Source of the DNA: Escherichia coli
GTDB lineage: Bacteria; Pseudomonadota; Gammaproteobacteria; Enterobacterales; Enterobacteriaceae
Reading direction: 5' to 3' (one strand)
NCBI RefSeq assembly: GCF_003334785.1
Contig: NZ_QOWV01000001.1
Length of the DNA stretch: 64,000 nt
Of the stretch, positions 52,637 to 60,150 are shown in pieces. The position numbers and the translations under genes are program-made. How positions within the stretch are numbered: position 1 is the stretch's first letter; each line of letters starts with the position of its first letter. The notes under the pieces are model-generated. The model saw only the letters and a list, made by a program, of their open reading frames with translations. It made no database searches and was not told the origin of the DNA.

Positions 52637-55885
<3,249 letters not shown>

Positions 55886-55913
55886 AGGCAGTACATTAAA
55901 ACAAGGAGCGGCA

Positions 55914-56825
55914 ATGTATTACGGGTTTGATATTGGTGGAACAAAAATTGCGCTTGGCGTGTTTGATAGCGGTCGGCAGTTGCAGTGGGAAAAGCGGGTG
56001 CCGACACCGCGTGACAGCTATGACGCATTTTTAGATGCAGTGTGTGAGCTGGTAGCTGAAGCTGACCAACGTTTTGGCTGTAAAGGTTCTGTCGGCATCG
56101 GTATTCCGGGAATGCCGGAAACAGAAGATGGTACGCTGTATGCCGCCAATGTCCCCGCTGCCAGCGGTAAACCGCTGCGTGCCGACCTGAGCGCACGTCT
56201 TGATCGCGATGTACGCCTTGATAACGATGCCAACTGTTTTGCCCTTTCAGAAGCCTGGGATGATGAATTTACTCAATATCCACTGGTGATGGGGTTGATT
56301 CTCGGCACCGGTGTTGGCGGCGGGCTGATTTTCAACGGCAAACCGATTACCGGTAAAAGCTACATTACCGGCGAGTTTGGCCATATGCGTCTGCCGGTTG
56401 ATGCGTTAACCATGATGGGGTTGGATTTCCCGTTACGCCGCTGCGGCTGTGGTCAGCATGGCTGCATTGAAAATTATCTGTCTGGTCGCGGTTTTGCGTG
56501 GCTGTATCAACACTATTATCATCAACCGTTGCAGGCTCCCGAAATTATTGCGCTTTATGATCAAGGCGATGAGCAGGCAAGGGCGCACGTTGAGCGTTAT
56601 CTGGATTTATTAGCGGTTTGTCTGGGAAATATCCTGACCATCGTTGACCCTGACCTGGTCGTCATTGGTGGTGGCTTATCGAATTTCCCGGCAATCACAA
56701 CGCAACTGGCGGACAGGCTGCCTCGTCATCTCTTACCTGTAGCTCGTGTTCCGCGCATTGAACGCGCGCGCCACGGTGATGCGGGAGGAATGCGTGGTGC
56801 GGCCTTCCTACATCTAACCGATTAA
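55914..56825 (+). CDS. nagK: N-acetyl-D-glucosamine kinase NagK (303 aa)
   Basis: Start at [39 protein letters not shown] gives 303 aa; ROK family; matches recalled NagK. Confidence 0.92.
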
Positions 56826-56840
56826 ACAACAGAGGTTGCT

Positions 56841-57680
56841 ATGCTGTCGCGTCGGGGTCATCGGTTAAGTCGTTTTCGTAAAAATAAACGCCGCCTGCGC
56901 GAGCGTTTGCGTCAGCGTATTTTTTTCAGAGATAAAGTGGTGCCGGAAGCAATGGAAAAACCAAGAGTACTCGTACTGACAGGGGCAGGAATTTCTGCGG
57001 AATCAGGTATTCGTACCTTTCGCGCCGCAGATGGCCTGTGGGAAGAACATCGGGTTGAAGATGTGGCAACGCCGGAAGGTTTCGATCGCGATCCTGAACT
57101 GGTGCAAGCGTTTTATAACGCCCGTCGTCGACAGCTGCAGCAGCCAGAAATTCAGCCTAACGCCGCGCATCTTGCGCTGGCTAAACTGCAAGACGCCCTC
57201 GGCGATCGCTTTTTGCTGGTGACGCAGAATATCGACAACCTGCATGAACGCGCAGGTAATACCAATGTGATTCATATGCATGGGGAACTGCTGAAAGTGC
57301 GTTGTTCACAAAGTGGTCAGGTTCTCGACTGGACAGGAGACGTTACCCCAGAAGATAAATGCCATTGTTGCCAGTTTCCGGCACCCTTGCGCCCGCACGT
57401 AGTGTGGTTTGGCGAAATGCCACTCGGCATGGATGAAATTTATATGGCGTTGTCGATGGCCGATATTTTCATTGCCATTGGCACATCCGGGCATGTTTAT
57501 CCGGCGGCTGGGTTTGTTCACGAAGCGAAACTGCATGGCGCGCACACCGTGGAACTGAATCTTGAACCGAGTCAGGTTGGTAATGAATTTGCCGAGAAAT
57601 ATTACGGCCCGGCAAGCCAGGTGGTGCCTGAGTTTGTTGAAAAGTTGCTGAAGGGATTAAAAGCGGGAAGCATTGCCTGA
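56841..57680 (+). CDS. cobB: NAD-dependent protein deacylase (sirtuin) CobB, long isoform 279 aa; short isoform would begin at about 56952
   Basis: [70 protein letters not shown]...; sirtuin core follows an Arg-rich 37-aa N-terminal extension; matches recalled CobB. Confidence 0.92.
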
Positions 57681-57772
57681 TGCACTACGCTTATCAGGCC
57701 TGCAAGGGGACGCAATTAATTGAATTTGCGGGTTTTGTGGGCCGGATAAGGCGTTCGCGCCCCATCCGGCAT
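57675..57772. repeat. REP cluster downstream of cobB
   Basis: GCCTGATGCACTACGCTTATCAGGCCTGC and GTGGGCCGGATAAGGCGTTCGCGCCCCATCCGGCAT: two REP-type palindromes. Confidence 0.7.
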
Positions 57773-57799
57773 AATACACGCGCACTTTTCCGGCCTCTT

Positions 57800-58588
57800 T
57801 TATCGTTTACTCGTCAATAACAATGCGGCAATAAACGTACAGACACCAATTAGCCCTGCCCAGAGTGGCGATATTCTGGTAATCGCAAAGCTATTATCGA
57901 TATACAAACATAAAGCCTGATAACCCATATTGGCAATAGTCATCGCCACTGCAAATTTTAACGCATAAATAAAACGAGTCGTGTAGTAAAAGATCCTGGA
58001 AAATAAGATAAACGTCGCAGCCCAGGCGATAAAACCTAATGTGTTGGTGCTGCCGGGGGGAGCATTTTCATGCTGTTGTCCTGGATGCGGATAATACGTT
58101 AGTGGCGGCGTCGATTGTTTTAATATCTGTGCTTGTAGAACAGCCAATGCATTATTGATTCCCTGATACCAGAGATCTGCATTTAAATAAGCCAGCGTGT
58201 GATTTTCTATCAGAAGGCCGAGATGTTTATCGTCCAGACCACTTTCAACCTGGCCGTTGGTGATCATAATTAACCGTGGTTCGCGGGTAGTAAATAGTAA
58301 CAGAACACTTCCTTTTACATCACTCAATGAAGATGACGCATGCGCCAGCATCGCTTTACCATTTTGTCTGAGACTGGCTTCATTATTAATGTCGGGTAAA
58401 ACCACAATAAACGGTGCAATTCCCGTTTGTTGGCGAAAAAGCTCGGCTTTATGCGCGATCTCTTCAGCATCTGGTACAGTACCGGTAACGTCCGTAAAAA
58501 GTGTCTTCATTATTGGAATTAATGGCTTGCTGGCTGCTGTCAGAGGCAGGAGTATCAGTAAACTGAGCAGTATAATGAATTTTTTCAT
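57800..58588 (-). CDS. ycfZ: Inner-membrane protein YcfZ (262 aa, DUF2057/YcfZ-YiiX family)
   Basis: [34 protein letters not shown]...; matches recalled YcfZ. Confidence 0.88.
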
Positions 58589-59046
58589 GGGCGGGACTTC
58601 CGTTTCCTGCGTGATTTTTTAGAGGAGGGCATACTTATTAATAAACCGACGGCGATAAAAATAACGCCCATAATGCCGATAAACCCCCATTTAAAAAAAT
58701 TAACCCACGGGTTATTTATCTCAGCCTTTTCAGGATGCCCGGGAGAATAATAAACATTAACTTTATCGCCTTCGCTGTCTTCATAAAAATCGCTGCCGAT
58801 ACTCGAATTGAAAATTAGCGTGTAATCTGGCGTCGGTCGAAAGGCAATGACGGGATACCACGAACCATCTTTACCCGTGCGATGAGAATGACTGGAGTGC
58901 CAGACGGTATCAACAATGACGCCTTCGGTATGAATCGCGTCTTTGCTATAGGTGAACTGGTTATAAAAGACAACAACAGAAATGAGGATCAGTACCAGAC
59001 CGATACCGAGGAATATACGAAAGAAAACTTTACTGTCCTGACTCAT
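58585..59046 (-). CDS. ymfA: Inner-membrane protein YmfA (153 aa)
   Basis: [47 protein letters not shown]...; the stop overlaps the ycfZ start; 153 aa from this Met (the six-frame ORF begins 3 codons earlier at MWLMSQ). Confidence 0.8.
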
Positions 59047-59103
59047 TAGCCACATCCTTGCTAACTAAAAAACGGGCGGTAATACCACCGCCCGCTTGCT
59101 GAA

Positions 59104-60150
59104 TTAACGTCCTGCTTTCAGCTTCTGATAATACTCTTCATAAATGCTGCTGGCTGCGCCAACGTCATTCTGCCATTCGCCATTTTTAATGGTTTCAGCA
59201 TCCGGGTAGAGTGTTTTATCGTTCGCCACTTCTGGACTTAACAGCTTACGCGCCGCAAGGTTTGGCGTTGGATAACCGATAGTTTCAGCAACCTGTTTTG
59301 CCACATCCGGGCGCAGCAGGAAGTTGATCAATTTCAGCGCGCCTTCTTTGTTTTTGGCATTTGCCGGGATCGCCAGGCTGTCCATCCAGAAAATGCCGCC
59401 TTCTTTCGGCCACACCACGTCAATTGGCGTACCCGCCTGGCGTGCAACGAAAGCAGAACCGTTCCAGATCATGCCGAGGTTAACTTCGCCTTCCATGTAC
59501 GGGTTCGCCGGGTTATCGGAGTTAAAGGCTGCCACGTTTGGCATCAGTTTTTTCAGCTCGTTATATGCAGCTTCAATCTCTTTCGGATCGGTGGTGTTAC
59601 CGGAGTAGCCCAGCTTACGCAGCGCCATCTGGAACACTTCACGGGCATCGTCGGTCAACAGCAGGCTGCCTTTGTACTCTGGCTTCCACAGATCGGCCCA
59701 GCTGGTGACAGATTTCGGATCCACCGCATCACCGTTAACACCAATCGCCGTCGCACCCCAGATATACGGAATGGAGTAGTCGTTATTCGGGTCAAAAGGC
59801 TTGTTGAGCATGTCTGGATCGAGATTGCTGAAGTTTGTTAACTTCGACTTGTCGATCTTCTGGATCATCCCTTCTTTACGCATTTTATCAACGTAATAGG
59901 TTGAAGGAACCACCAGATCATAGGCACCGTCTTTGTATGTTTTCAGCTTGGCGTACATGGTTTCGTTCGACTCGTAAGTCGAATAGATAACCTTAATACC
60001 GGTTTCTTTGGTGAACTGTTCAAGCAGTCCTGGCGGCACGTACTCGGTCCAGTTGTAGAAATACAGCGTGTTGTTGTCATCGGCGTGAGCGGCGCTCATG
60101 CCCAGTGCCAGAGCACCCGCCGCGAGCAGGTGGCGTGACCATTTTTTCAT
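59104..60150 (-). CDS. potD: Spermidine/putrescine ABC transporter periplasmic binding protein PotD (348 aa)
   Basis: MKKWSRHLLAAGALALGMSAAHADDNNTLYFYNWTEYVPPGLLEQFTKETGIKVIYSTYESNETMYAKLK...; matches recalled PotD. Confidence 0.95.
   Translation of the reverse strand: MKKWSRHLLAAGALALGMSAAHADDNNTLYFYNWTEYVPPGLLEQFTKETGIKVIYSTYESNETMYAKLKTYKDGAYDLVVPSTYYVDKMRKEGMIQKIDKSKLTNFSNLDPDMLNKPFDPNNDYSIPYIWGATAIGVNGDAVDPKSVTSWADLWKPEYKGSLLLTDDAREVFQMALRKLGYSGNTTDPKEIEAAYNELKKLMPNVAAFNSDNPANPYMEGEVNLGMIWNGSAFVARQAGTPIDVVWPKEGGIFWMDSLAIPANAKNKEGALKLINFLLRPDVAKQVAETIGYPTPNLAARKLLSPEVANDKTLYPDAETIKNGEWQNDVGAASSIYEEYYQKLKAGR

Follow-up and report, generated by a model that had tools for sequence, protein, structure and literature searches.

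IF2 alpha/beta, ClpB 93/79 and CheA L/S are pairs of bacterial proteins in which one open reading frame gives two products with a common C-terminal core, and the two products differ in an N-terminal regulatory segment. In these genes one mRNA serves both starts, and the second product comes from ribosomes that initiate internally. For cobB of Escherichia coli, by comparison, a separate internal promoter has been reported (PMC6209979). The E. coli cobB ORF gives a 279-aa CobB-L and a 242-aa CobB-S, and both proteins have been detected (Umehara 2018, Genes 9:473, PMC6209979). Among constructs with a C-terminal His-tag, those with 1218 or 417 nt of upstream DNA produced both bands; an upstream stretch of 30 nt, or the cobB-L ORF alone, gave CobB-S only, and the cobB-S ORF alone gave no product (PMC6209979). 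These bands therefore place the CobB-L promoter at -417..-30, inside nagK, and the CobB-S promoter at +1..+111, and BPROM returned promoter candidates at -347..-319 and +51..+83 (PMC6209979). The native proteins have been seen in MG1655, where an anti-CobB western reveals species of 31.5 and 26.7 kDa (NAR 2026, PMC12926920). Long and short CobB isoforms from this locus are therefore already known and published for E. coli's own cobB. The initial annotation of the DNA studied here had proposed that both isoforms could be made from the locus, which the published constructs and the native western bear out, and the western blot that it suggested as a check is already in print.

The N-terminal tail of CobB-L has been associated with ligand binding. 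Polyphosphate (KD 48.8 nM) and dsDNA (KD 6.42 uM) are bound by CobB-L only, and polyphosphate inhibits the deacetylation of DnaK by CobB-L but not by CobB-S (PMC12926920). Binding of c-di-GMP requires residues 1-37 and is abolished by truncation, and after any one of the substitutions R8A, R17A or E21A binding is weakened and the enzyme no longer responds to c-di-GMP (preprint 10.1101/362293). The two proteins, the promoter intervals and the ligand binding have thus been demonstrated in print. In Salmonella, the long isoform is described with 273 aa and the short one with 236 aa, and transcription starts at two sites (Tucker & Escalante-Semerena 2010, as cited in PMC6209979, PMC10965786 and PMC8603916); the N-terminal domain is responsible for oligomerisation and for Zn2+ binding (PMC10965786). 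According to the summary in PMC8603916, YiaC-dependent N-terminal acetylation lowers the activity of the long form (Parks & Escalante-Semerena 2020), and in that account this modification is reported for Salmonella CobB only. Erwinia is a stated exception to the conservation of the two isoforms (PMC8603916).

The window, which is the whole stretch of 64,000 nucleotides of E. coli DNA that was analyzed, carries the same gene with the same sequence as the published CobB-L/CobB-S locus (PMC6209979, PMC12926920), and there is no substantive difference between them. The features are collected in the table. The cobB ORF is 840 nt long, and its translation agrees exactly with the earlier description of a 37-residue extension followed by an internal Met at 56952, where the Sir2 core opens with its NAD-binding part. 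The upstream neighbour nagK ends in a TAA stop at 56823-56825 and leaves a gap of 15 nt to the cobB ATG; therefore, no gene overlaps the cobB tail, as had been claimed. The 401-nt nagK-cobB junction is found with 95-100% identity in 5426/5426 complete E. coli genomes, and RefSeq names the two genes there as nagK and then cobB, a 'Sir2 family NAD+-dependent deacetylase'.

The protein matches Pfam SIR2 (PF02146) with E = 5.8e-54 over residues 48-221, which covers the full model (1-180). The NCBIfam equivalog NF001755 reaches 599.8 bits (cut-off 318), with residues 1-275 aligned to 1-275 of the 278 model positions. Since this alignment starts at residue 1, the tail belongs to the curated family. 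The remaining CobB models do not reach their cut-offs, and their alignments start only at about residue 37-43. The residues of the NAD-binding GAGxSxxSGI motif (G48, A49, G50, S52, A53, E54, S55, G56, I57) are invariant in 42 Enterobacterales sequences, and so are H147, C155, C174, C176 and C177. From established sirtuin knowledge we take H147 to be the catalytic residue and the four cysteines to bind Zn. The E. coli CobB chains in the PDB are identical to the window protein over residues 39-279, and the solved structures (1S5P, 6RXJ-6RXS) all begin at residue 39/40, without the tail. The gene is almost certainly the E. coli K-12-type cobB, which encodes an NAD+-dependent sirtuin protein deacylase made as two isoforms.

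Some observations at this locus stand apart. In E. coli strain E1433 (NZ_CM180511.1) the junction match ends at query position 296/401, about 56995 in the window, and the gene is annotated just as 'NAD-dependent protein deacylase'; a disruption or rearrangement within cobB may be present. Five of the 5427 junction matches are plasmid-labelled records, which is unexpected for a core chromosomal locus. These records may represent replicons with a wrong label or large captures of chromosomal DNA. No Rfam family was found in 55000-59500 on either strand, and the idea of a non-coding RNA there was rejected.

Table. Features of the cobB locus in the window
Feature	Coordinates	Strand	Basis
nagK (N-acetylglucosamine kinase), upstream neighbour	55914..56825	+	ORF; RefSeq 912-nt nagK
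Candidate CobB-L promoter in nagK, TTGCGT-17-TATCAT	56494..56522	+	Relaxed scan, 8/12; PMC6209979
Shine-Dalgarno AGAGG for Met1, 5 nt before ATG	56831..56835	+	Duplex with 16S 3' end, -7.0 kcal/mol
cobB CDS, CobB-L (279 aa + TGA stop)	56841..57680	+	ORF list and translation; RefSeq cobB in E. coli genomes
37-codon Arg-rich N-terminal extension, CobB-L-specific	56841..56951	+	12 Arg + 3 Lys; translation
BPROM-predicted -35/-10 of internal CobB-S promoter (+51..+83)	56891..56923	+	Coordinates converted from PMC6209979
Reduced synonymous variation, codons 27-40	56919..56960	+	Composition-corrected synonymous diversity, O/E
SD-like AGTGGTG (Val33-Val34 codons), 9 nt before Met38	56936..56942	+	Duplex -6.0 kcal/mol
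CobB-S reading frame (242 aa), start Met38 ATG 56952-56954	56952..57680	+	In-frame ATG; published CobB-S
Six extra codons (KAGSIA) + TGA, running into REP element	57660..57680	+	One T lost from ancestral TAA stop
Membrane-protein ORF, 262 aa	57800-58588	-	ORF list
Membrane-protein ORF, 156 aa	58585-59055	-	ORF list

The tail is strongly basic. Besides one His, Arg and Lys make up 15 of its 37 residues, compared to 21 of the 242 residues of the core, an enrichment far above the rest of the protein. The initial annotation had counted 13 Arg/Lys; the correct figure is 15, which is also the number of basic residues given by Umehara 2018 (PMC6209979). It had also called the tail predicted amphipathic, and this description is not supported for a helix. 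Between 40 and 66% of shuffled versions of the tail equal or exceed its maximum alpha-helical hydrophobic moment, and an amphipathic helix was rejected as a descriptor of the tail. The R-x-R-x-R alternation of residues 18-26 is modestly unusual, as 2-8% of shuffles reach it at 170-180 degrees. In an AlphaFold2 model built from the 42-sequence alignment the core blocks have a pLDDT of 86-98, the tail forms a lone helix over residues 5-30 with a pLDDT of about 50, and the linker at residues 27-36 falls below 50. The model suggests that the tail is a flexible appendage.

The tail is conserved across the order. One genome was taken per species, which gave 80 Enterobacterales loci that include Escherichia, Citrobacter, Salmonella, Enterobacter, Klebsiella, Hafnia, Yersinia, Serratia, Rahnella, Pantoea, Erwinia, Pectobacterium, Edwardsiella and others, and the tail is open and basic in 80/80. 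The tails have in common the motif R-x-x-R-[FLY]-[RK]-K-x-[KR]...R-[LF]-R-x-R-[IV]-F-x-[RT]-D. In the order-wide alignment of 42 sequences R8, R22 and R24 never change, and conservation reaches at least 90% at R4, R11 and R17; E21 is variable among the sequences compared. Pairwise Nei-Gojobori estimates over 41 colinear Enterobacteriaceae sequences give a dN/dS of 0.156 for the tail versus 0.049 for the core, and these sequence comparisons indicate that purifying selection acts on the tail. The Arg codons of the tail interchange among CGT, CGC, CGG and CGA while the residue stays Arg. The low dN/dS and these synonymous swaps show that conservation acts at the protein level, and therefore that the tail is translated.

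This conservation bears on the reading in which the short form is the sole functional enzyme, the upstream ATG is over-annotated and the tail is an untranslated leader. Such a reading could appeal to the crystal structures and most of the biochemistry, which use the core from residue 39/40, to the other CobB family models, which align only from about residue 37-41, and to the insolubility of CobB-L in one laboratory's hands (PMC6209979). The purifying selection, the synonymous Arg changes, the open frame in all 80 species and the Shine-Dalgarno sequence before Met1 argue against it, as does the need for residues 1-37 in ligand binding (PMC12926920, 10.1101/362293). CobB-L has also been seen in westerns, including as the native protein (PMC6209979, PMC12926920). 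The published westerns have already refuted this reading, and it retains virtually no credibility.

Both starts carry features of translation initiation sites. A GAGG/GGAG-type Shine-Dalgarno sequence lies 5-9 nt ahead of Met1 across the order. The duplex energy of the AGTGGTG site before Met38 is reached by only 16% of background core positions, and the Val33 and Val34 codons that form it are nearly always GTG (20/21 and 16/19). AGTGGTG is therefore the probable ribosome binding site of CobB-S, as judged from the sequence. The folding energy is -6.5 kcal/mol around Met38 versus -16.4 kcal/mol around Met1. Codons 39-42 are almost fixed and A-rich, GAA-AAA-CCN-AGA, with GAA in 25/25, AAA in 36/37 and AGA in 34/38. 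Taken together, these analyses agree with a function for both starts. The in-frame codons TTG23, GTG33 and GTG34 were considered as other starts and rejected as likely ones, with Shine-Dalgarno duplexes of -1.8 to -2.9 kcal/mol. A hairpin that would sequester the Met1 Shine-Dalgarno sequence and AUG by pairing the nagK 3' end AACCGAUU with AUCGGUU of codons 7-9 (-16.4 kcal/mol) was also rejected; its z-score against shuffles is -1.37, and no conserved or covarying structure was found in 19 species. The ribosome-profiling literature on retapamulin and cobB yielded no relevant match.

The codon at the Met38 position differs among lineages. It is ATG in 53/82 sequences, and four others (two Citrobacter, Brenneria and Pectobacterium; loci L004, L006, L056 and L080) have GTG, so that 57/82 have ATG or GTG. 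Eight sequences from Serratia, Rahnella, Rouxiella and Hafnia psychrotolerans have CTG or CTA (loci L062, L066, L068, L070, L073, L075, L077 and L078), and these lineages have an in-frame ATG five codons upstream of the column, for example in D-T-M-A-A-A-E-L-K-K-P. A short isoform in the CTG/CTA and GTG genera may use a shifted or non-ATG start. The column is ACA in 2/82, and the 15 Erwiniaceae-type sequences (Pantoea, Erwinia, Mixta, Izhakiella) all encode His or Tyr there, which fits the published Erwinia exception to the two isoforms (PMC8603916). The orthologue of Salmonella enterica (locus L010) is 90% identical to the window protein and has the same 37-residue basic tail and internal Met; at the internal start it has two adjacent Met (MMENPRV).

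Synonymous variation is reduced upstream of Met38. The minimum O/E among all 266 eight-codon windows of the gene is 0.57 at residues 27-34; the value at 28-35 is also low, that at 33-40 is 0.62, and none of the twelve lowest windows falls outside residues 10-44. The dip measures 0.61-0.73 in 45 Met38-bearing sequences versus 0.92-1.07 in the 15 His/Tyr38 Erwiniaceae-type sequences, in a comparison of related sequences whose statistics ignore kinship. The dip over codons 27-40 probably reflects embedded CobB-S signals, namely the end of the internal promoter, the transcription start site and the ribosome binding site. Erwinia and Pantoea CobB, which are made as the long form only, have an Arg-rich tail like that of the window, with the motif R-x-x-R...RFRQRIF-x-RD, but unlike the window they have His or Tyr at the core boundary and no synonymous dip upstream. 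Since both the Met and the dip are missing there, the internal start is a lineage-specific addition or loss. In a separate observation, R30 (56928-56930) and R42 (56964-56966) are encoded by the rare codon AGA in most Enterobacteriaceae (31/34 and 34/38). The remaining Arg residues of the tail are specified by CGN codons. The AGA codons fit nucleotide-level constraint around the CobB-S start, although their cause is not established.

These features also bear on the suggestion that only the long form is made and that the shorter band results from a proteolytic clip in the disordered linker. The linker at residues 27-36 is indeed predicted to be disordered (pLDDT <50), and the Erwiniaceae do without a Met at position 38. 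However, CobB-S was obtained from constructs that are unable to make CobB-L, both the one with 30 nt of upstream DNA and the ORF alone (PMC6209979), and a selected initiation site is indicated by the SD-like site, by the A-rich codons that follow Met38 and by the synonymous constraint found upstream of it in a lineage-specific manner. Proteolysis is therefore a very improbable source of the short form.

The promoters are less clearly marked in the sequence. A simple scan for the sigma-70 consensus found no site in 56300-57900. In a relaxed scan the best match in the 3' part of nagK is TTGCGT(56494)-17-TATCAT(56517-56522), which scores 8/12 and coincides exactly with the -347..-319 elements of PMC6209979. 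Promoter activity has been demonstrated just for the interval -417..-30 (PMC6209979). Within the tail the relaxed scan gave weak matches of 7/12 only, such as TTGCGT(56907)-18-GATAAA(56931). The internal promoter is thus supported by experiment (PMC6209979) and by the constraint map rather than by consensus matching. For E. coli it is based on one plasmid study and the Salmonella precedent.

It is possible, though on balance unlikely, that CobB-S is owed mostly or also to ribosomes that start internally at Met38 of the long mRNA (nagK-cobB or cobB-L), and not to an internal promoter. Met38 has its own SD-like site and weak local folding, there is no convincing sigma-70 match inside the tail, and an earlier reporter study, as cited in PMC6209979, had tested -400..+151 of cobB and detected no promoter activity. 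Against this, a promoter-less plasmid with the cobB-L ORF yielded CobB-S only and one with the cobB-S ORF yielded nothing, which places a promoter in +1..+111 (PMC6209979). Internal initiation and an internal promoter are compatible routes and are not mutually exclusive.

In the preferred explanation, which is very probable, CobB-L would be translated from the ATG at 56841 on mRNAs with 5' ends further upstream, which come from a promoter inside nagK or from transcription that starts at the nagK promoter and reads through. CobB-S would be translated from the ATG at 56952, mainly on a shorter mRNA whose promoter lies within +1..+111 of cobB. The tail of 37 residues would then be a flexible regulatory appendage, present in CobB-L only, that binds polyanions and ligands. 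Binding of c-di-GMP, polyphosphate and dsDNA by the tail, together with oligomerisation, would modulate the activity of CobB-L, and CobB-S would escape this control. Compared to the published E. coli work, the present analysis adds comparative support, in that the tail is conserved as protein, SD-like sites precede both starts and synonymous constraint lies before Met38, as well as a proposed position for the CobB-S ribosome binding site and the constraint zone.

The C-terminal end of the window protein is altered. CobB has 279 aa in the window; the usual length is 273 aa, which is seen in E. coli O157:H7, in E. albertii, in Salmonella and in almost every other species, and homologue matches cover residues 1-273 only. 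The alignment places a deletion at the 57659/57660 junction, where GGA TTA TAA AGC became GGA TTA AAA GCG; aligned with O157, E. albertii and Salmonella, the window has GGATTA-AAAGC where the others have GGATTATAAAGC. The window CobB is six residues longer than Salmonella CobB because of this stop-codon deletion. The new TGA stop sits within a REP-like element (GCCTGATGC...GCTTATCAGGCC). The 3' end of K-12-type cobB is found with at least 99% identity in 1691/5426 complete E. coli genomes, and the other matches listed for the 3' end span one extra base.

The region beyond the gene also differs among strains. REP-like repeats follow cobB in the window, and then the two minus-strand membrane-protein ORFs. 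In E. coli O157:H7 (L001 2464-3401, compared with window 57681-59055) potD lies only about 155 nt after cobB; therefore, the two ORFs are a strain-variable insertion or deletion beside cobB. The downstream sequence of E. albertii is of the window type.

It is an even call whether the two additional features of this locus are both correctly read, that is, whether codons 27-40 are dual-coding in a lineage-specific manner, together with Met38 and not in Erwiniaceae, and whether the 279-aa protein is a derived stop-loss allele reading into the REP element.

E. coli relies on CobB as its main lysine deacylase. The tail makes CobB-L sensitive to c-di-GMP, polyphosphate and nucleoid association, and this sensitivity links second-messenger and stress signalling to the acetylome. 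This role of the tail is already in the literature for the exact gene, and the window finding adds nothing new to it. The constraint map over codons 27-40 is a small, testable pointer to the positions of the CobB-S signals. If the dual coding is true, the ratio of the long to the short isoform would be an evolvable trait that could be read from synonymous sites.
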